64,000 nucleotides of DNA from an uncultured Staphylococcaceae bacterium (lineage in GTDB: Bacteria; Bacillota_I; Bacilli_A; RFN20; CAG-826). Under the pieces are notes generated by a model that did not search any database, was not told the origin of the DNA, and saw only the letters and a program-made list of their open reading frames with translations. Below are positions 1 through 10,430 of this stretch, piece after piece. The translations under genes and the position numbers were made by a program. Position 1 is the first letter of the stretch; the number at the start of each line of letters is the position of its first letter. The DNA is taken from assembly GCA_964546565.1 (NCBI GenBank), contig CAZJKC010000001.1, positions 16,997-80,996 on the forward strand, read 5' to 3'.

Positions 1-8
1 GAAATAAA

Positions 9-392
9 TTAGACCACCTTTATAGATATTCTTTTGCATCCATTTTTTAGTGCATTATCTAACCAAGAACACAGTAAATCATATACTTCTTTGGTATCGT
101 CATAATCAAAATGACGATTTTCGTATAATTTTAGATCGGCGAGGTATTCACTTATATCCGTTATGCATGCTTCGGAATCGTCTCCGAACGCACCCTCGCA
201 TTGATGATAATCTCTTGTAAACCCTAGCCAACCATTACCATCGAGAGTGGGTTCTCTCAAAATATCATCAAAGTATCCATCCCATATGTGCAAGATTTGC
301 ATATTCGAGTTTTCAGCTTTGATTATAATTTCGGGTTCGCCTTCAAAGCCCTCAAAAAATTTGAAGTTATCTATTGTCTTTCCAGTGTCCAT
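9..392 (-). CDS. hypothetical acidic small protein (127 aa), last gene of HTH/ImmA-led operon; candidate immunity/antitoxin partner of upstream basic protein
   Basis: Complete ORF. Start overlaps the upstream gene's stop by 26 nt. Asp/Glu-rich. Local GC (~40%) is higher than the window average. No family recognised. Confidence 0.5.
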   Translation of the reverse strand: MDTGKTIDNFKFFEGFEGEPEIIIKAENSNMQILHIWDGYFDDILREPTLDGNGWLGFTRDYHQCEGAFGDDSEACITDISEYLADLKLYENRHFDYDDTKEVYDLLCSWLDNALKNGCKRISIKVV

Positions 393-807
393 TATCCAAC
401 CACTCCTTTTGTTGTTTTGTTAATGTGCCATTTTTACGAGCCATTATTGCATTTTTCCAATCTTTTTTTGATATCCACTTGTTTTTTCCTACCAAAACTT
501 CTTCTTGCTTTGGTCGTGCATTTTTGCCGTAACCTACACCTATTTTTTTACGTTCAACAACCCACGTATTTCCCTGTTCCTTTGGTGCATTAGGGGTGCG
601 GGTGTGCCAACGGCTCGTATAGGAATAATCCCCTCTTTTCCAAATATATTTTACTTGGTCATATCCATTTTTTTGTTCTTCTTTTACTATGGCAGAAGAA
701 GGTATTTTGATAGGTGAACCTTTAGGAAGCGTATTTTTAATGTAATCTTTATGGCTTTTGGTCGCACCATGAGTGCGACCAAAACCACCGTGGAAGCCTG
801 CACCCAT
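367..807 (-). CDS. hypothetical basic protein (146 aa), Gly-rich N-terminus, Lys/Arg-rich; candidate toxin/effector
   Basis: The start ATG overlaps the stop of the upstream 221-aa gene as TAATG (translational coupling). Strongly basic composition, followed by an acidic partner. No family recognised. Confidence 0.5.
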   Translation of the reverse strand: MGAGFHGGFGRTHGATKSHKDYIKNTLPKGSPIKIPSSAIVKEEQKNGYDQVKYIWKRGDYSYTSRWHTRTPNAPKEQGNTWVVERKKIGVGYGKNARPKQEEVLVGKNKWISKKDWKNAIMARKNGTLTKQQKEWLDNGHWKDNR

Positions 808-1472
808 TAAGCATCCACCGCCTTTCGACTTTGCATAAAGTCGCTGTCAAATTGCAGTATTTCAATTCCCATTTTCTTGTATTGCTTGAACACCTCGTCC
901 GGTGTAGTACCATAGACAACAATTGTGGCCGGCTCTAATGTGTTAACCACATAATTTAAGCCGTTTTTGAAATATTTTCGTTCGGTCAGCAGCTTTATAC
1001 AACCGTGAGAACCAACTGCGATTACCCCATGCTTATTGATACCAGCACAAGATAATTCAAATGTACGATCATCACCAAAGCGTATGTTTGGTATGACCGG
1101 TATGCCGTTATCCTGTAACCAGAAACCAATTGCTCGGCTTCGATAAATATTCCATTGTTGCATTACCAACGGCATATCTCGATAGACGCTGAAATCGGGA
1201 GAAATAACGCCTTTGAATTTTTTTAGGATAGGGAGATATATGTTTGGTCTATTCCATAATCTTTCAAATGCGGTATCGTCCTCGTAAAAATGTACCCAAG
1301 CATCAAAATCGGTACTATGTATCGCTTTTGAAAATGCAATTAGCTTATGCGGCTTTTGCATCTCTGTCTTTAAGCAAGGTATTTCAAACGAACTATCATA
1401 GGTCGCATTTTTTACTAAAAATGCGTGAAAAACATCTTTGCACCCACTTCGAGTGCTGTTTTTTCTCGACAT
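807..1472 (-). CDS. hypothetical protein (221 aa); possibly the DUF4417-like family often seen next to HTH/ImmA pairs (unverified)
   Basis: Long ORF with elevated GC, in an operon downstream of the ImmA-like gene. The family assignment is from memory only and was not checked. Confidence 0.45.
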   Translation of the reverse strand: MSRKNSTRSGCKDVFHAFLVKNATYDSSFEIPCLKTEMQKPHKLIAFSKAIHSTDFDAWVHFYEDDTAFERLWNRPNIYLPILKKFKGVISPDFSVYRDMPLVMQQWNIYRSRAIGFWLQDNGIPVIPNIRFGDDRTFELSCAGINKHGVIAVGSHGCIKLLTERKYFKNGLNYVVNTLEPATIVVYGTTPDEVFKQYKKMGIEILQFDSDFMQSRKAVDA

Positions 1473-1486
1473 ATACTATGCCCTCC

Positions 1487-1672
1487 TTATCTGTCTTTTG
1501 TAGAAAATCGCATTTTTTTGTAAAAACACCAATACTTTTTGCAATTTTTCTTAAGATGTGGCATAATATTCATGCGAAATATCGGATGCTCGCATCCAAA
1601 GAGAACGCACTTTGTAAGTTGTTGCCGCAATTTACTGAGTGCTTTTTCTATTTGTACGAACTTTACAATCAT
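1487..1672 (-). CDS. small basic ORF (61 aa), uncertain
   Basis: Start overlaps the ImmA-like stop (ATGA). Cys/Lys-rich. Could be a real coupled small protein or a spurious call. Confidence 0.25.
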   Translation of the reverse strand: MIVKFVQIEKALSKLRQQLTKCVLFGCEHPIFRMNIMPHLKKNCKKYWCFYKKMRFSTKDR

Positions 1673-2253
1673 ATAAAATCACCATCCTTTCTCTTGATTT
1701 TATATTGCACAGCTTCTTTGAAAAGTAGGAGTAATCGTCTTTCATAATTGGTATAATCCTTATTGCCGTAAGTCAACCATTTGTGATAGTAAGAGAAAGC
1801 GTAGATTGCTGCTTCAAAGCTGATGTCAAAAACCTCGTAAACCTCGTAGACGTCCTTTAACCCAAATTTGTGAATAAAGACAGGCGGCGCTAGAGCATAC
1901 TTTGCAAAAAAATTCGCTTCGGCTTCTGCCAATTCACTTTCTTCCGTGTGGTCTAACACTATATGCCCACACTCGTGGGTAATAGTATTTTTAATACGTC
2001 TGTGGCCCTTTGCATCGTTATAAAAAATGTACCACACGCCACTTTTTTTGATGGTAAATCCATCCTCACTTATTTTCATCATAAGTTGCTGTTTTTCTTC
2101 GTTTTTTGAGGAATAAGGGACAAGCACCGCACCGAGTTTAGTTGCTATTTCAAATCCACTTATAGGAATACATCGGATAGTAAGTTTCTCGAATGTTTTA
2201 ACTATACTCTCTTTAATTTCCTCAAATCGCTTGTCTGATAATCTAAATGCCAA
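1669..2253 (-). CDS. ImmA/IrrE-family zinc metallo-endopeptidase (anti-repressor protease)
   Basis: HEXXH motif (ITHECGHIVLDH) in a ~190-aa protein immediately downstream of an XRE HTH gene. This is the classic ImmR/ImmA (CapH/CapP-like) arrangement. Confidence 0.8.
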   Translation of the reverse strand: MAFRLSDKRFEEIKESIVKTFEKLTIRCIPISGFEIATKLGAVLVPYSSKNEEKQQLMMKISEDGFTIKKSGVWYIFYNDAKGHRRIKNTITHECGHIVLDHTEESELAEAEANFFAKYALAPPVFIHKFGLKDVYEVYEVFDISFEAAIYAFSYYHKWLTYGNKDYTNYERRLLLLFKEAVQYKIKRKDGDFI

Positions 2254-2255
2254 TA

Positions 2256-2567
2256 TTAGTCCTCCTCGAATAGAGCAGTAATAAGTGCTCGTTTTTGCTT
2301 TTCCGACATTGTTGCGGAATTTCTTGCTAATAAGCGTTCAACCTTTGGAAAATCAAACTCGTCTTGTTCGATACCGAGCAAAAAGTCCGAAGTAGTGTGT
2401 AGGGCAGTTGCAATATTTGCAAGCATGTCCGCTTTAGGCTCTCTGTCACCGGAAACATAACGAGAGAGCGTGGCTTCAGTCGTGTTAATTCTATCAGCAA
2501 GCTCCTTTTGTGTTATACCTTGTTTTTGTAATAGGTTTAATAACCTCTGGCCAAGTGCCTTACTCAT
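2256..2567 (-). CDS. XRE-family helix-turn-helix transcriptional repressor
   Basis: N-terminal HTH_3 signature (ITQKELADRINTTEATLSRYVSGDREP). RBS AAGGAGG at 2573-2579. First gene of the operon. Confidence 0.85.
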   Translation of the reverse strand: MSKALGQRLLNLLQKQGITQKELADRINTTEATLSRYVSGDREPKADMLANIATALHTTSDFLLGIEQDEFDFPKVERLLARNSATMSEKQKRALITALFEED

Positions 2568-2942
2568 TGTATTTCCTCCTTAGGCGGAGTAACCTCTACC
2601 CCGACTTACCAAAAGTATAATTCATCTTACCAAAACAGTCAAGTGCGTTTTGCAAATCAACAAATATGTTATATCTTGTTTCAAAATTCCATTTCAAATA
2701 CTAAAAAAGCAAGGAAATTGATCCTCCCATTGTCGCTTATATCTTATATACTCGACTTTCTTTGATTTCAATTAACACAAAGCATTTGACAATTTTTAAC
2801 GTTTTTTTATAATCTATCGATAATATTTATTATACATGTTTTTTTAAGAGGACATTTTTTAAAAAAATAATAAAAATTGTCCTTTTAAATCAAACTTTTA
2901 ATATGAAAATGATATAATTGTTTTGTGAATTGGAGTGATTTT

Positions 2943-4175
2943 ATGAACTTATATAAAAGAGAAGAATACTTAAAAAGAATAAGAGGATTTTATCATGATA
3001 CAGACATTATAAAAGTAATCACTGGTGTTAGAAGATGCGGAAAGTCATCTATAATGCTTATGATAATTGAAGAAATATTAAAAAGTGGAATAAGTAAGGA
3101 GAATTGTATTTTCATTGACTTAGATAGTAGAAAATACAGCAAAGTGAAAACTGATAAAGCTCTAGAAGAACTATTAGATTCATTTTCAAATATTAATGGA
3201 ACTAAATATGTTTTTATCGATGAAATACAAAATATTAAAAATTATGAAGAAGTTATTAATGCTTTTAGGAATGATGGAGATTATTCAATATTTATTACAG
3301 GATCTAATTCATATTTATTAAGTGGGGAATTAATAACAAAACTTACGGGAAGATATATTGAATTTGAAATATTTACATTATCATTTTATGAATATTTAGA
3401 GATGAAGAAGTTTTTTAATAAACCAGTTGATTCTAATATATTAAATGAATTAAACAATTATATTATTGAAGGTGGATTCCCCAAAGCTATACAATATGAT
3501 TCAATTATAGACAAAAGATCTTATACTAAAGCTACTGTTACTGAAATTATTGAAAAAGATATAAAAAAAAGAGTCAAAATTAGAACTATAGAAGCATTTA
3601 ATTTAGTTATGAATTTTATAATTAATAATTATGGACAAACAATGAGTGTTTTGAGCATTCAAAAAGGACTAGAAAATGCCGGTATTAAAGTAAAACGAGA
3701 AACTATATCTAAATATATTGAAATCTTAGTAAATGCTAAAATAATTTATCAATGTGATAGATTTGATATGAAAAGTAAACGTTCATTAAAAGGTGAGAAA
3801 AAATATTATTTAGCAGATTCGTCATTTTATTATTCCATGAACACTGATAATAGAATAAATTATGGTCCTGCCTTAGAAAATGTAATATACACATATGCAA
3901 GAAGTAAAAGATACACTGTAAGTGTTGGAAGAATTGGATTACTCGAATGTGATTTTATATTAAGAGATAATTATTTAAACTATTCATATTTACAAGTTGC
4001 ATATACAATCTTAGAAAGTAAAAAAACTGAAGATAGAGAATATATTCCTTTAGAATTAATTAAAGATAATTATCCTAAATATGTGCTAACAACTGATCTT
4101 TTAATTCAAAAACGTAATGGTATTATTCACGCTAATATTGCAGAATTTACAAGAAACAATCTTAATTTTAATTAG
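2943..4175 (+). CDS. COG1373-type AAA ATPase (AAA_14 + C-terminal DUF4143 domain)
   Basis: Walker A GVRRCGKS and Walker B VFIDEIQ. Very AT-rich gene (~22% GC). The start is probably the ATG at 2943 (SD GGAGTGA at 2932-2938) rather than the GTG at 2925. Confidence 0.75.
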   Translation: MNLYKREEYLKRIRGFYHDTDIIKVITGVRRCGKSSIMLMIIEEILKSGISKENCIFIDLDSRKYSKVKTDKALEELLDSFSNINGTKYVFIDEIQNIKNYEEVINAFRNDGDYSIFITGSNSYLLSGELITKLTGRYIEFEIFTLSFYEYLEMKKFFNKPVDSNILNELNNYIIEGGFPKAIQYDSIIDKRSYTKATVTEIIEKDIKKRVKIRTIEAFNLVMNFIINNYGQTMSVLSIQKGLENAGIKVKRETISKYIEILVNAKIIYQCDRFDMKSKRSLKGEKKYYLADSSFYYSMNTDNRINYGPALENVIYTYARSKRYTVSVGRIGLLECDFILRDNYLNYSYLQVAYTILESKKTEDREYIPLELIKDNYPKYVLTTDLLIQKRNGIIHANIAEFTRNNLNFN

Positions 4176-4524
4176 ACATAATATAAAATTGCAAATTAAA
4201 TGAGAACAATAATTGCAAAATAACTAAGAAAAAAAGTAAGAAACAATTAATAATTTGCAAATTAAATTACAAAAAGAAAAATAATTAGTGACACAAGATT
4301 AATAGTAGAGCCAACTATTTTAATAATAAAGATTTTTTTAATTTCAAATTCAAATTGCATAATGATTAGATGTAATTGTTATGTCATTGTCATCAAAAAC
4401 ATGTTTATTTTACGATGCTTTTTTAATACAATATTTATATAATTTGTTTAAGAAGACATTATATATTAATTTTTGAACTTTAAATAAAGTCTTTCTACCT
4501 AATTATTTTGTGAGGTGTTTTTTA

Positions 4525-6855
4525 ATGATTAAACTAGTTTCTGTTAGTAAAAAATATAAAACGACATCCCATCCTTGTTATGCTCTTAAAAAAATATCAT
4601 TAACATTACAAAGTCATGGTCTAATAGCTATTCTTGGTCCTTCCGGATGTGGAAAAACAACTTTATTAAATATTCTTGGTGGTCTTGATCAGCCAACACA
4701 AGGCTCTATTATTATCGATGGGAAAAACACTAAAAATTTCACTGAACAAGATTTTGATAGTTACCGCAATCAAACCGTTGGCTTTGTTTTTCAAAATTAT
4801 TATCTTATTCCTCATCTCACCATCTATGATAATGTTGCTTTAGCTCTGGAAATGACAGGAGAAAAACAAAACATCAAAAATAGAGTATTAGATGCTTTAA
4901 AAGAAGTTGGCCTTTTAGATATTAAAAATGCTAAACCCAGTTCTTTATCAGGGGGGCAAATGCAACGAGTCGCTATTGCGCGAGCCTTGATAAATAATCC
5001 ATCTATCATTTTAGCGGATGAGCCTACTGGCGCTTTAGATTCTAAAAATGCTTCACAAGTGATGTCTATTTTAAAGAAAATATCCAAAAAACATCTTGTG
5101 GTAATGGTAACTCACAATCAAGATATCGCTGAAAAATATGCTGACCGAATTATCGAATTACTTGATGGTAGAATAGTTCATGATTCTAATCCCATAACAC
5201 GCAGTGTAACAACATCTTTTAAGAAAACAAGCAAGGTTAGAATATCTTTTAAACATTGTATAAAATGGAGTTTAAACAACTTATGGAATAAAAAACTACG
5301 TAGTGCCTTGACTATTTTTGCTGGAAGTATTGGCATCATGGGAATGGGTGTTATTTTATCAATGACTAGCGGTGTTAATGAATATATCGATAACGCTCAA
5401 AGTCAATCACTAGGAAAATACCCTGTTATGATTACATCATATCTTAAAAATTCATCAGAAAGTCACAAAGATGAATTAACAGAATACCCCGATACTGATT
5501 ATATTATCATTGAGAAAGGTGATATCGCACAACAAGAGCATGTTAATCAAATGCCTGATGATTTTTATCAATATATGCAAGATATGAATTCTTCCTATTA
5601 TACTGTCTCGGACTCTAATTCCTATCTTCAATTTCCTATTATTACTAAATGTAATGACCAATATAAATTAATATCCTCTCGTTATTTCACAAAAAATGTT
5701 GATAATATTTCTTTTGCCAAAGAACAATATGATGTTTTAGAAGGAAAAATGCCCGAAGCTATTAATGAATTAGCGATTATTGTTGACAATTATAATCGAA
5801 TAGATGTTTCCTTATTAGATAGTCTCGGTTTCGATATCCAAGATGAAACTATTTCTTTTAATTTCTTATTAAACCAAAAAGAATTTCATGTTATTCCCAA
5901 TGATTTATATTATATAATTCCCGAAGGAGAAAACCATTATTACGCAAAGGGTAGTTCATATTACGATGATTTATATAATTCTACAAGCGGATTAACATTA
6001 AAAATCGTTGGCATTTTGCGTGAAAACAAATCAATTAAAACACCTTTATTTGAACCAGGAATACTCTATACACCAGCCTTAAGTAAGTATATTCAAGAGC
6101 AAGCAAATAATAGCGATATTGTCCAAGAACAATTATCTTATGGGCTTAAGAAAGATGTTTTTACCGGTGAGCCCTTTGAAGATATTGTTAATTATAGTTA
6201 CGCATATTCAAAGCAATATCAATATGAAAGAAGATTGTTCTCATTAGGGGTTAAGGAACAAATTACGCAACTATATTATTACACATCTTCTTTTGAACAA
6301 CGTCTTATGATTAATGACTATTTTTCATCTTTTTCCTTTTCAGAAGATGCGTCAATCATTGTCCGATCATACGACTATATTGAACTTGTTACAAATGAAT
6401 TCTCAACACTTGTCACTTTATTTAGCAATATATTATTAGTTTTTAGCGGTATAAGCATTTTCGTCAGCGTACTATTAATCAGTATCTTAATGTACATTTC
6501 TGTTTTAGAAAGAAGTAAAGAGATTGGACTTTTACGTAGTCTAGGTGCTCGAAAGAAAGATGTCGCCCGTATTTTCCTATCAGAAGCCTTTACAATTGGA
6601 GTTTTATCCGGAGTTCTTGGCATTATTTTAGCTATTATATTTAATCGTCCATTAAGTAATGTCACAAAGTCATTATTAGCCCAATATACTTCTAGTATGC
6701 TTAATAACGCCGCGATTAATCTTGATCATTTCCGTTTTTGGGTTGCTCCTATTATGCTTATAACAAGTATTATTGTGACCTTGATTGCAGGAATTATTCC
6801 CGCAATCAAAGCCTCAAGGAAAAAGCCGGCCGAAGCCTTAAAAGATGACATTTAG
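4525..6855 (+). CDS. ABC transporter, fused ATP-binding domain + FtsX/MacB-type permease with large extracytoplasmic domain
   Basis: Walker A GPSGCGKTT, signature LSGGQMQRVAIARAL, Walker B ILADEPTGALD. C-terminal 4-TM FtsX-like region. Probable start is ATG 4525 after SD GTGAGGTG. Confidence 0.85.
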   Translation: MIKLVSVSKKYKTTSHPCYALKKISLTLQSHGLIAILGPSGCGKTTLLNILGGLDQPTQGSIIIDGKNTKNFTEQDFDSYRNQTVGFVFQNYYLIPHLTIYDNVALALEMTGEKQNIKNRVLDALKEVGLLDIKNAKPSSLSGGQMQRVAIARALINNPSIILADEPTGALDSKNASQVMSILKKISKKHLVVMVTHNQDIAEKYADRIIELLDGRIVHDSNPITRSVTTSFKKTSKVRISFKHCIKWSLNNLWNKKLRSALTIFAGSIGIMGMGVILSMTSGVNEYIDNAQSQSLGKYPVMITSYLKNSSESHKDELTEYPDTDYIIIEKGDIAQQEHVNQMPDDFYQYMQDMNSSYYTVSDSNSYLQFPIITKCNDQYKLISSRYFTKNVDNISFAKEQYDVLEGKMPEAINELAIIVDNYNRIDVSLLDSLGFDIQDETISFNFLLNQKEFHVIPNDLYYIIPEGENHYYAKGSSYYDDLYNSTSGLTLKIVGILRENKSIKTPLFEPGILYTPALSKYIQEQANNSDIVQEQLSYGLKKDVFTGEPFEDIVNYSYAYSKQYQYERRLFSLGVKEQITQLYYYTSSFEQRLMINDYFSSFSFSEDASIIVRSYDYIELVTNEFSTLVTLFSNILLVFSGISIFVSVLLISILMYISVLERSKEIGLLRSLGARKKDVARIFLSEAFTIGVLSGVLGIILAIIFNRPLSNVTKSLLAQYTSSMLNNAAINLDHFRFWVAPIMLITSIIVTLIAGIIPAIKASRKKPAEALKDDI

Positions 6856-9134: not shown

Positions 9135-10430
9135 TTAAATACAAAATGCTGCGTATAAAGGAACAATCTTTTTATTATCCTCGAATGCAAAGTTTTTCAT
9201 AGATAATTTGATAGAATAAGCAGGATTATATTTGTCTATATAGACTTTTAAACTCTTTGCTCTTGTGTTGTCTGCAGACTTGACTTCAATTGGAATAAGT
9301 TGACCATTGCGTTGAATAACAAAGTCAATTTCCGCTCCACGTTCAGATTCCCAATAATAGGTATTATAGCCATTAATAGATAATTGCACATTGACATAAT
9401 TCTCAGTCATACCGCCCTTGAAATCATTTAATTCATCAACCATATAAAGAATATCGTTTGCTACCAAATCTTTTTTAGCACAAAGCAAGCCTAAATCCGA
9501 TACATAAATCTTGAATGCATCAATATCACGGTAGTTTTCCAAAGGTTTTTTGATTTGACCCACCTTGTAAACTTGCGATACGATACCAGATAAACAAAGC
9601 CATTCAATAGCATTTTCAAATTCGGAAGCCCGACCACCTTTTTTAATCAGTTTATATTGAAAACGAGTATTCTTCTTTGAGAGTTGAACGATAATATTAT
9701 CATATGTAAGTCTTGTTTTCTTGATTCCGTTTAAATGATTGTACTTACTCATATCGTTAAGATAACTTGCAAGAATGGTATCCTGTATATGACGAATAAG
9801 AATATAATCCTTTGTTTTGACAAACTGCATTACACATTCCGGCATACCACCTACAATGAGATACTGACGGTAAAATCGCATTGCCATATCATGCAAAGCA
9901 GACGGCATTGGATTATTAGTTTCAAAGCATTTTTTAATCTGCTCTACAAGAGCATTTTCACCCATTGCTAACAAGAATTCTTCCATATCCATAGGATAAA
10001 GAGTTTTCATATCTACCTTACCAACAGGAAAAGAATGCTTAGCTCTATTGACAGCCACGCCGAGCAAACTACCTGCTACAATGATGTGATAATCGGGAGC
10101 ATCTTCACAAAAATATTTCAGTGAAGTCAAAGCTCTTTCACAAAGTTGTACTTCATCAAATACAATTAACGTTTTCTTTTTTACGATAGTCTGACCTGCA
10201 ATATGAGATAAAATCGGTATTAGATAATCAGGGCTAATATTTTCCTCAAATGTTTCGTTCAGTTTTGGATTAGTTTCAAAATTAAAATATGCTACATTTT
10301 CATACGCTTTACGCCCAAATTCGAGAATAGAATATGTTTTTCCAACCTGCCTTGCTCCCTGCAAAATAAAGGGCTTGCGGTTTTCACTTTCTTTCCATAC
10401 TTCTAAAAACTTCATAATCTTTCTATACAT
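9135..10430 (-). CDS. COG1373-type AAA ATPase (AAA_14 + DUF4143), second divergent paralog
   Basis: Walker A GARQVGKT and Walker B LIVFDEVQ. RBS GGAGGA. Only distantly similar to the 2943..4175 paralog. Confidence 0.75.
   Translation of the reverse strand: MYRKIMKFLEVWKESENRKPFILQGARQVGKTYSILEFGRKAYENVAYFNFETNPKLNETFEENISPDYLIPILSHIAGQTIVKKKTLIVFDEVQLCERALTSLKYFCEDAPDYHIIVAGSLLGVAVNRAKHSFPVGKVDMKTLYPMDMEEFLLAMGENALVEQIKKCFETNNPMPSALHDMAMRFYRQYLIVGGMPECVMQFVKTKDYILIRHIQDTILASYLNDMSKYNHLNGIKKTRLTYDNIIVQLSKKNTRFQYKLIKKGGRASEFENAIEWLCLSGIVSQVYKVGQIKKPLENYRDIDAFKIYVSDLGLLCAKKDLVANDILYMVDELNDFKGGMTENYVNVQLSINGYNTYYWESERGAEIDFVIQRNGQLIPIEVKSADNTRAKSLKVYIDKYNPAYSIKLSMKNFAFEDNKKIVPLYAAFCI

Follow-up and report, generated by a model that had tools for sequence, protein, structure and literature searches.

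A candidate polymorphic toxin-immunity cassette in which a structured leader, a DUF4417 protein and a short toxin tag form the constant module

What is carried by a compact bacterial operon that opens with an XRE-type repressor and an ImmA-type metallopeptidase, and whose remaining genes match no recognized defense gene? The question is raised by the left end of a 64,000-nucleotide stretch of DNA (the window) from an uncultured Staphylococcaceae bacterium (GenBank assembly GCA_964546565.1, contig CAZJKC010000001.1, positions 16,997 to 80,996), where six open reading frames (ORFs) are tightly packed on the minus strand between positions 9 and 2567. An earlier note on this DNA, made from the sequence alone, had described a six-gene operon of horizontal origin, led by an XRE helix-turn-helix (HTH) protein and an ImmA-type peptidase and ending in a basic/acidic pair of toxin-immunity or toxin-antitoxin (TA) type. 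Our analysis favors a more specific answer, to which we assign a probability of about 60%: positions 1-2650 are a self-contained, horizontally acquired polymorphic toxin-immunity cassette with a previously undescribed constant module. Comparison of related loci shows a constant part, composed of a structured leader, a DUF4417 protein and a 14-residue tag at the N-terminus of the toxin, usually with an XRE/M78 pair upstream, and a variable part, composed of the toxin C-terminal domain and the immunity gene.

Evidence for this comes from a survey of 185,579 species genomes, which yielded 310 confirmed loci. We analyzed 80 of these genome loci, whose DUF4417 proteins are 60-90% identical to that of the window, and the counts of loci given below refer to this set. 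The trio of DUF4417, toxin and immunity genes, with the same overlaps, is conserved across unrelated chromosomal settings, and its neighbors in relatives include Fic, HinfI restriction-modification, type I restriction-modification, PLD-DEAD-DUF3427 helicase, HepT/MNT and AAA_14-DUF4143 genes. A toxin of the window type is present in only 13 of the 80 loci. Past residue 16, the tagged proteins split into at least 15 unrelated C-terminal clusters, and no significant Pfam family was found for 8 of the 12 cluster representatives scanned. The variable toxin domains include an LHH HNH-type nuclease (1.2e-30), Ntox50 (1.2e-27) and DUF6883 (4.5e-15); among the ORFs behind them, SUKH_5 (2.9e-29) follows LHH and DUF4926 (4.2e-12) follows DUF6883. 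In several loci (L028, L040, L047, L049, L051, L053, L081 and L098), the first pair is followed by orphan immunity genes that belong to other types of cassette, or by a second tagged toxin in truncated form. The same debris is left by cassette replacement in Rhs, contact-dependent inhibition (CDI) and LXG loci.

The part of the toxin that does not vary is its N-terminus. In 75 of the 80 loci, the ORF whose start codon overlaps the DUF4417 stop has an N-terminus that fits the consensus MG[AT]G[FIY]HGGFGxTxG, represented in the window by MGAGFHGGFGRTHG, and residues M1, G2, G4, G7, F9 and G10 are invariant. The codons of the invariant glycines have zero entropy at positions 1 and 2 and 1.5-1.9 bits at position 3. 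Because the third position varies while the first two never do, selection acts on the tag peptide and not on the DNA. Variants of the tag accompany more distant DUF4417 proteins: a homolog 27% identical to that of the window is followed by a protein starting MGGYGGASDRG..., one at 31% identity is followed by a MHSSDSGLTNGT... start, and next to DUF4417 homologs on viral contigs (30-42% identity) the following ORF starts, or could start at an internal Met, with MGGRG(A/S)SG or MGSRGASSG. Taken together, the near-universal TAATG coupling, the retention of the tag whatever the toxin domain, and the tag variants found with divergent DUF4417 proteins suggest a physical link of the tag with DUF4417. 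Two tandem DUF4417 cassettes were seen in one Eubacterium-like genome (L011, 1694-8862). They differ in tag variant, toxin and immunity gene, and each has an HTH/M78-type regulator to itself; a PLD-like gene stands between them, and a PLD-DEAD-DUF3427 helicase gene comes after the two.

The identity of the last two genes rests on homology. Neither the 146-aa nor the 127-aa protein has a match in Pfam, NCBIfam or PADLOC, toxin-antitoxin families included, and the 166 close homologs of the 146-aa protein are all unannotated and mostly from gut or rumen Bacillota. A profile of the toxin domain found 361 relatives among 1.84 billion representative proteins, and in nearly all of the best 150 of these 361 matches the domain occupies the extreme C-terminus of proteins of 101-2478 aa. 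Two of the long relatives are RHS-repeat proteins (5e-51 and 7e-29), one of them with SpvB and TcdB regions, and another has a sub-threshold LXG match. The tag is present in only 3 of the best 150 relatives, so the killing domain is common to classical secreted toxins and the tag-plus-DUF4417 format. In a Listeria record (OR846743.1, L016), a cassette within an LXG toxin locus encodes a protein whose last 130 residues are 44% identical to the 146-aa protein (E 1e-31), and the ORF after it is 36% identical to the 127-aa protein (E 1e-11); the same record encodes a 455-aa LXG toxin (9e-35), followed by immunity-like genes. A homolog of the 127-aa protein likewise follows the toxin in the complete loci that have the window toxin type. 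Because RHS proteins and the LXG-locus cassette end in a homologous domain, and because the Listeria ORF behind that domain is a homolog of the 127-aa protein, we assign a polymorphic-toxin C-terminal domain to the 146-aa protein and take the 127-aa protein as its predicted cognate immunity protein. Their opposite charges, pointed out in the earlier note, are borne out by their pI values (Table 1). Of the two possibilities raised there for the pair, toxin-immunity is thus retained, and the important unit is not a TA pair but the DUF4417 and tag module with its exchangeable toxin and immunity cassettes.

The AlphaFold2 model of the 146-aa protein has a pLDDT of 84.3. The toxin has no N-terminal secretion or trafficking domain (LXG, PAAR, RHS, TPS or signal peptide): its toxin domain is preceded by the 14-residue tag and one helix, and the protein has no Pfam domain. 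Two domain assignments were set aside. A pre-toxin TG domain, suggested by eye in an insert of about 70 aa in longer toxin relatives, has no Pfam match (E=0.097 in the Listeria protein) and is not claimed, and matches to Ntox24 are sub-threshold and were not used. The Listeria record itself is unannotated and labelled 'UNVERIFIED_ORG Listeria phage LM 4-11-1'; it resembles the Listeria chromosome, and the phage label is doubtful. Its positions 1420-6252 hold the LXG toxin, several immunity-like ORFs (DUF1871, Imm74), the toxin-immunity cassette, and then genes for an oligopeptide-binding-type lipoprotein and a metal ABC transporter.

The 221-aa protein encoded directly ahead of the toxin was identified as DUF4417 by the profile search that the earlier note had proposed (Table 1). 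Its AlphaFold2 model (pLDDT 83.7, pTM 0.83) has an alternating beta/alpha barrel-like fold, and we regard a TIM-like barrel as a solid prediction. Invariant residues sit directly after successive strands of the model (HFYEDD 61-66, DFS 93-95, R98/D99, N129/R131, G154/H156/G157, Y187/G188 and D209/S210). This region is the catalytic face of TIM-barrel enzymes, so the position of the invariant residues in the model argues for an enzyme or a ligand pocket. D93, D99, D134 and D209 are invariant, and four conserved cysteines are also present. The latter (C11, C33, C142 and C158) are invariant or nearly so in the window's subfamily and may form a subfamily-specific metal site; the N-terminal segment that bears C11 is modelled at low confidence. 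Of these four, the equivalent of C142 alone is retained in the few distant homologs inspected by eye (those of phage phiST1 and L011).

A likeness to one particular family of barrel enzymes is less secure. Foldseek gave only weak, generic TIM-barrel matches and did not confirm a match to tRNA-guanine transglycosylase (TGT); identity to ArcTGT, QTRT2 and DpdA is 8-11%. Searches by sequence gave no TGT link, with DUF4417 the only Pfam family found and no TGT among the matches to Protein Data Bank sequences. Because the structural matches are weak and generic and no sequence method connects the two families, we treat the TGT likeness of the model as a lead. DUF4417 differs from the tRNA- and DNA-guanine transglycosylases in that its chain is about half the size of a TGT, a TGT-type zinc subdomain was not identified in it, and there are no 7-deazaguanine synthesis genes nearby.

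The lead gains interest from type IV of the cyclic oligonucleotide-based antiphage signaling system (CBASS). There, the N-terminus of the CD-NTase CdnD fits the pattern M(G/S)G(G/S)GG at its first residues (residues 2-15 after Met1 are GGSGGSFGSGFDPR) and is bound by the TGT-like protein Cap10; its Gly2 bears a 7-deazaguanine adduct made by the QueC-like Cap9 (bioRxiv 10.1101/2025.04.06.647259). The two arrangements have in common a TIM/TGT-like accessory protein encoded beside a partner with an MG start and a Gly/Phe-rich N-terminus (compare GGSGGSFGSGFDPR with the window tag, MGAGFHGGFGRTHG), and both are genetically inseparable pairs. They differ in that the window operon and its related loci have no CD-NTase or QueC domain. 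Since no QueC-like gene is present here, any chemistry on the tag would have to differ from that of CBASS. By analogy, DUF4417 could be a transglycosylase-fold enzyme repurposed onto protein, whose barrel pocket takes the Gly/Phe/His-rich toxin tag as Cap10 takes the CdnD N-terminus and modifies the tag or tethers it to a nucleobase or nucleic acid, thereby controlling the activation or delivery of interchangeable toxins; phage DUF4417 would then be a viral counterpart, and the leader a new class of cis-regulatory RNA. We consider this full version doubtful.

Phage members of the family offer further comparisons. No function for DUF4417 is given in the literature searched, where it is described as a domain of unknown function often fused in phages to ParB-CTPase folds (bioRxiv 10.1101/2025.10.10.680097) and is found just 5' of the terminase genes in streptococcal phage A25 (PMC8066415). 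By tblastn, DUF4417 occurs in 504 phage records, at less than 40% identity. Many phage DUF4417 genes are fused to ParB-like domains, and some are followed by ORFs starting MGGRG(A/S)SG. In Streptococcus phages the gene lies beside the terminase genes, just 5' of them; in Mycobacterium phages it is the first or second gene from the left end of the genome. In Mycobacterium phage Power (L019, 665-2570), for example, the DUF4417 gene gp2 at the left end is followed by gp3, a VIP2-like ADP-ribosyltransferase toxin gene (5.4e-21), and then by a small acidic ORF, gp4. This layout recurs in many cluster-mates, without a Gly-rich tag and without coupling, and may be the form that the DUF4417-toxin(-immunity) arrangement takes in phages. 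A small ORF after other phage DUF4417 genes (L017, Streptococcus phage phiST1, 4082-4465; L102; L106) contains the motifs ...KYGTEY...NIKFV...DLDHEHK..PHTHHGY, and by eye its His-rich C-terminal motif is shared with a tagged toxin from a bacterial locus (L088, ..DIDYTNHG..HPHVPHEHK). Cos phages usually have an HNH nuclease gene beside their terminase genes, which is the position of this small ORF.

The third component of the constant module lies in the gap between the M78 and DUF4417 genes, whose length is kept at about 193-250 bp in most loci and whose fold z-score is -3.0. The conserved element within it consists of an A-rich lead-in, a 15-bp hairpin (P1), a long-range helix (P2) enclosing P3, and a near-invariant ATTATGCCACAT; a local hairpin, GGATGC-GA-GCATCC, is an alternative to P2 and competes with it. 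All of 36 diverse sequences, folded singly, give this same architecture. In an unbiased MAFFT alignment of 15 sequences, pairing holds in 82.5% of cells, vs 35-42% when the partners are slid, and changes on both sides occur in 22 of 32 pairs, a number reached by none of 500 shuffles. The covariance model finds the element in 66 of the 80 loci, on the sense strand and just 5' of DUF4417. Because it also occurs in two loci that lack the repressor-protease pair (L007 and L010), it belongs to the DUF4417 module. RNAalifold predicted nothing on the full gap alignment, in which MAFFT had misregistered the helices; the element was resolved by folding sequences singly, by trimming the alignment and by the covariance model. 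No Rfam family matches it, in a search that covered preQ1 and other known riboswitches upstream of DUF4417. We read it as a leader or attenuator RNA. A sigma-70 promoter within it was considered and rejected, as the alignment has a TATTAT box without a -35 element at workable spacing.

This element also bears on the gene count. A 61-aa ORF that overlies it had been taken as the third of six genes. The ORF has no family match in Pfam, phrog, PADLOC or NCBIfam profile searches; in relatives, its first approximately 32 codons are conserved and the remainder is frame-shifted. An ATG-initiated ORF of at least 30 aa is found in only 28 of 63 M78-DUF4417 gaps, and these ORFs differ between subfamilies. 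It is therefore probably not a gene, and the cassette would consist of five genes and a structured non-coding element. In all other respects the layout is as first described: the coordinates of the six ORFs and their junctions (in order, a 2-nt gap, a 4-nt overlap, a 14-nt gap, the 1-nt TAATG overlap and a 26-nt overlap) are exactly those claimed.

The two genes at the head of the operon were recognized correctly from the outset, as their HTH_3, Peptidase_M78 and PADLOC matches confirm (Table 1); the HTH protein also matches an RstR-like NCBIfam model (7.6e-15), below its cut-off. The M78 gene has a TTG start with a GAGGAGG Shine-Dalgarno sequence ahead of it. An M78 gene lies directly 5' of DUF4417 in 63 of the 80 loci, and in most of these 63 a homolog of the HTH gene lies immediately 5' of it. 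As in the ImmR/ImmA pairs of ICEBs1 and phages and in CapH/CapP, which regulate CBASS and other defense systems, an XRE-HTH gene is followed by a gene for an M78 peptidase with an HEXXH motif, directly 5' of a cargo, and the PADLOC models for CapH and CapP match the window pair. In contrast to those systems, the window pair is co-directional with its cargo, apparently in one operon, the cargo is a DUF4417-toxin-immunity module, and the pair is missing from some otherwise complete DUF4417 cassettes.

How, then, does this arrangement compare with known polymorphic toxins? The framework for such systems is said to have been laid out by Zhang, Aravind and colleagues in 2012. Like the LXG/type VII, RHS and CDI systems, the cassette combines one constant N-terminus with many unrelated toxin domains and matching immunity genes (LHH with SUKH, Ntox50), places the cognate immunity gene immediately 3' of the toxin, carries orphan immunity genes and displaced toxin stubs behind it, and uses a toxin domain found in RHS proteins and in an LXG-locus cassette. 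It differs from these systems in several ways: the constant part of the toxin is only 14 residues long, where theirs is a large domain for trafficking or secretion; the structured leader and DUF4417, a separate protein made by coupled translation, also belong to the constant part; and the cassette has no type VII, VI or V secretion context and is usually under an XRE/M78 switch. Colicin- and pyocin-type operons, which are SOS-induced and encode bacteriocins, are similar in their stress-type repressor control, in the toxin gene followed by an overlapping immunity gene, and in their exchangeable killing domains with cognate immunity. Here, by contrast, domains for receptor binding or translocation are absent, as is a lysis gene; the hosts are Gram-positive gut or rumen Bacillota, and colicins have no counterpart of DUF4417 and the tag.

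From these comparisons a working model can be proposed. The repressor would hold the operon off until a signal of stress (DNA damage, for instance, or a cue of infection) leads the M78 protease to inactivate it, by analogy with ImmR/ImmA and CapH/CapP, and the leader would add a second layer of control. Translational coupling would ensure that DUF4417 and the toxin are made together. The catalytic face of the DUF4417 barrel may then engage the flexible MGxG..GGFG tail and hold, modify or hand over the toxin, while the immunity protein would bind the toxin domain and shield the producer and its kin. The purpose would most likely be stress-induced, colicin-like antagonism against non-immune neighbors; we lean to antagonism because the toxin and immunity families include classic inter-bacterial ones and because orphan immunity genes and displaced toxin stubs lie behind the cassette.

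Several observations weigh against this proposal, which is built from sequence, models and analogy. We infer the DUF4417-tag contact only from gene linkage, coupling and the tag variants that accompany divergent DUF4417 proteins. Export is unexplained, as neither a signal peptide nor a known trafficking domain is present in the toxin and the genes nearby include none for secretion. In 17 of the 80 loci no M78 gene could be detected on the upstream side (a few of the contigs end at that point), and the repressor-protease pair is absent from L007-L010; the switch is thus frequent and not obligatory. The leader could be a palindrome or operator acting at the DNA level instead of an RNA. Finally, the contexts that resemble defense islands suit an intracellular anti-phage role equally well. 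Together with the capH/capP-like regulators and the lack of an export signal, this makes anti-phage defense of the abortive-infection type a strong rival, and we regard it as possible. The XRE/M78 pair would relieve repression of the cassette on infection or DNA damage, as CapH/CapP do, DUF4417 would sense or be triggered by a phage cue and activate or release the tagged toxin within the infected cell, and the immunity protein would be an antitoxin that sets the threshold. The capH and capP matches of the regulators agree with this, as do the toxin without an export signal, the candidate defense ATPase of family PDC-S01 that adjoins the window cassette, and the restriction-modification (HinfI and type I), PLD-DEAD-DUF3427 helicase, Fic, HepT/MNT and AAA_14-DUF4143 genes that adjoin its relatives. 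Type IV CBASS is a precedent for a TGT-like accessory protein on a Gly-rich N-terminus (bioRxiv 10.1101/2025.04.06.647259), and the abundance of DUF4417 in phages would suit a decoy or sensor relationship. On the other hand, a suicide effector does not readily account for cognate immunity proteins that are co-translated and of classic inter-bacterial type (SUKH), or for orphan immunity genes in arrays, and no PADLOC model is matched by DUF4417, the toxin or the immunity protein, in agreement with the view of the earlier note that the cargo lies outside recognized defense genes.

Two further accounts were weighed. An ordinary type II TA or addiction module, situated behind an unrelated, nucleic-acid-modifying DUF4417 protein and without a functional link to it, could present the same small basic toxin, acidic antidote and overlapping genes, and phage DUF4417 domains are fused to ParB-like domains where DNA methyltransferase domains otherwise sit (bioRxiv 10.1101/2025.10.10.680097), suggesting a DNA-directed enzyme with a role of its own. 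We think this unlikely: the TAATG coupling and the tag are kept in 75 of the 80 loci whatever the toxin domain, the tag is under protein-level selection, tag variants go with divergent DUF4417 proteins, and the toxin domain is found in RHS proteins and an LXG-locus cassette and not in toxin-antitoxin families. The second account, a decayed prophage fragment, would make DUF4417 and the downstream nuclease-like gene a phage pair associated with the late region or packaging and without a present function. It draws on the positions just 5' of the terminase genes (Streptococcus phages) and the left-end (gene 1 or 2, Mycobacterium phages) positions of phage DUF4417 genes and on the small ORF with a Gly-rich start, or the toxin gene such as gp3 of Power (ADP-ribosyltransferase, 5.4e-21), that often follows them. 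Against it, no phage structural, integrase or replication genes are present in or beside the cassette or in related loci, all five ORFs are intact, the tag is under purifying selection, and the cassette is kept as a unit across the 310 confirmed genome loci. Close homologs lie in chromosomal islands, and of 2.9 million viral contigs only 14 matched, one of them closely; positions 1-2700 have no nucleotide match in phage or plasmid collections. A prophage remnant is accordingly very unlikely, and the cassette is not an ordinary prophage module. The polymorphic toxin-immunity cassette is the reading that we carry forward.

The features of the cassette are collected in Table 1. The cassette is compositionally foreign and was acquired horizontally, as first suggested. 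GC content is 0.383 over positions 1-2600 and 0.313 in the remaining window; none of 294 other 2.6-kb windows matches the former value, the highest reaching 0.363. The GC content at third codon positions (GC3) is 0.30-0.38 in the cassette genes vs 0.13-0.24 in genes nearby. The GC shift noted earlier is therefore real; it spans all of 1-2600 and is not confined to the last approximately 1.5 kb.

Table 1. Coordinates of the features of the cassette in the window
Feature	Position	Strand	Remarks
Promoter-like site TTGACT-17-TATACT	2614..2642	-	10/12 consensus matches; consensus match only
XRE-family HTH, candidate repressor, 103 aa	2256..2567	-	HTH_3 2.2e-13; PADLOC capH 3.5e-11
ImmA/IrrE-type M78 zinc metallopeptidase, 194 aa	1669..2253	-	Peptidase_M78 3.5e-7; motif HECGH; PADLOC capP 9.4e-9; phrog_87 metallo-protease 1.2e-12
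61-aa ORF	1487..1672	-	Overlies the structured element; probably not a gene
Conserved structured element (leader), between M78 and DUF4417	1535..1650	-	Covariance model 108 bits
DUF4417 protein, 221 aa	807..1472	-	DUF4417 at 4.9e-71
Conserved N-terminal tag MGAGFHGGFGRTHG, toxin codons 1-14	766..807	-	ATG overlaps the DUF4417 stop codon (TAATG)
Predicted toxin, 146 aa, pI 10.1	367..807	-	Tag, helix and polymorphic-toxin C-terminal domain (~residues 30-146), outside Pfam
Predicted cognate immunity protein, 127 aa, pI 4.3	9..392	-	Start overlaps toxin gene by 26 nt; no Pfam family

The suggestion that the element might continue past position 1 did not hold. A metagenome contig (L001), identical to the window over 1166 bp (100% identity), extends beyond this edge and contains a candidate terminator, an 11-bp-stem hairpin followed by T7, at 9-33 nt past the stop codon of the 127-aa gene, after which the GC content is down to 0.28-0.30. 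No integrase and no further element genes were seen to the left of position 1 in the metagenome contigs that reach past the window edge; these contigs are 1.5-2 kb long, and in them the terminator is visible and the next genes only partly so. At the other end, the promoter-like site lies about 45 nt 5' of the HTH start codon. Because this site at 2642-2614 and the terminator with its GC drop bound the cassette, the island is self-contained, at about 2.7 kb. Beyond the terminator, L001 has two short convergent ORFs of 75 and 95 aa on the opposite strand (1524-1971), with no Pfam family; the 95-aa ORF has an HEMRH motif, and the contig ends within these two ORFs. In the window, the neighbors are of chromosomal type (ABC transporter, LicD, fructose-bisphosphate aldolase, ArgRS and penicillin-binding protein genes). 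Two genes for AAA_14 + DUF4143 ATPases are also present, at 2925-4175 on the plus strand and 9135-10430 on the minus strand, and the region with both may be a variable or defense island. The first abuts the cassette, has a GC content of about 0.23 and a GC3 of 0.13, and matches the PADLOC candidate defense family PDC-S01 at 1e-127; the same ATPase family is found close to a related cassette in L014.

Taken singly, the parts of the cassette are familiar, namely XRE/M78 switches and polymorphic toxin domains paired with immunity proteins. In the literature searched, we found no description of a polymorphic toxin system whose constant part is made up of a 14-residue tag, a conserved leader and a DUF4417 barrel coupled to the toxin. 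If the proposal is correct, DUF4417, a family present in hundreds of phage genomes as well as in gut and rumen Bacillota, would gain its first functional context, and one could recognize a class of polymorphic toxins by the 14-residue tag at the N-terminus and the TIM-barrel protein coupled to it, and not by a secretion domain. New domains of toxins and immunity proteins could also be mined simply by searching for the combination of tag and DUF4417, and the leader is an uncatalogued candidate regulatory RNA. Should the tag be handled as Cap10 handles the N-terminus of CdnD, the recently discovered chemistry of protein N-termini would reach beyond CBASS. The cassette is 2.7 kb and self-contained, and therefore open to direct testing.

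One further set of loci concerns copy number. In three metagenome loci (L003, L005 and L006; ERZ272475xx metagenomes), the cassette is partly duplicated in tandem in one organism. A 3.7-kb circle, i.e., a plasmid or excised form, had been considered for L006, a 3857-bp contig with a 141-nt terminal repeat, and was rejected because L003 and L005 show a partial tandem duplication, which an assembler with k=141 could close into such a contig. The duplicated copy comprises a truncated DUF4417 gene, the toxin and immunity genes and an RmlD fragment, and the full operon follows; the flanks are copies, of at least 131 bp, of an RmlD-like gene fragment.

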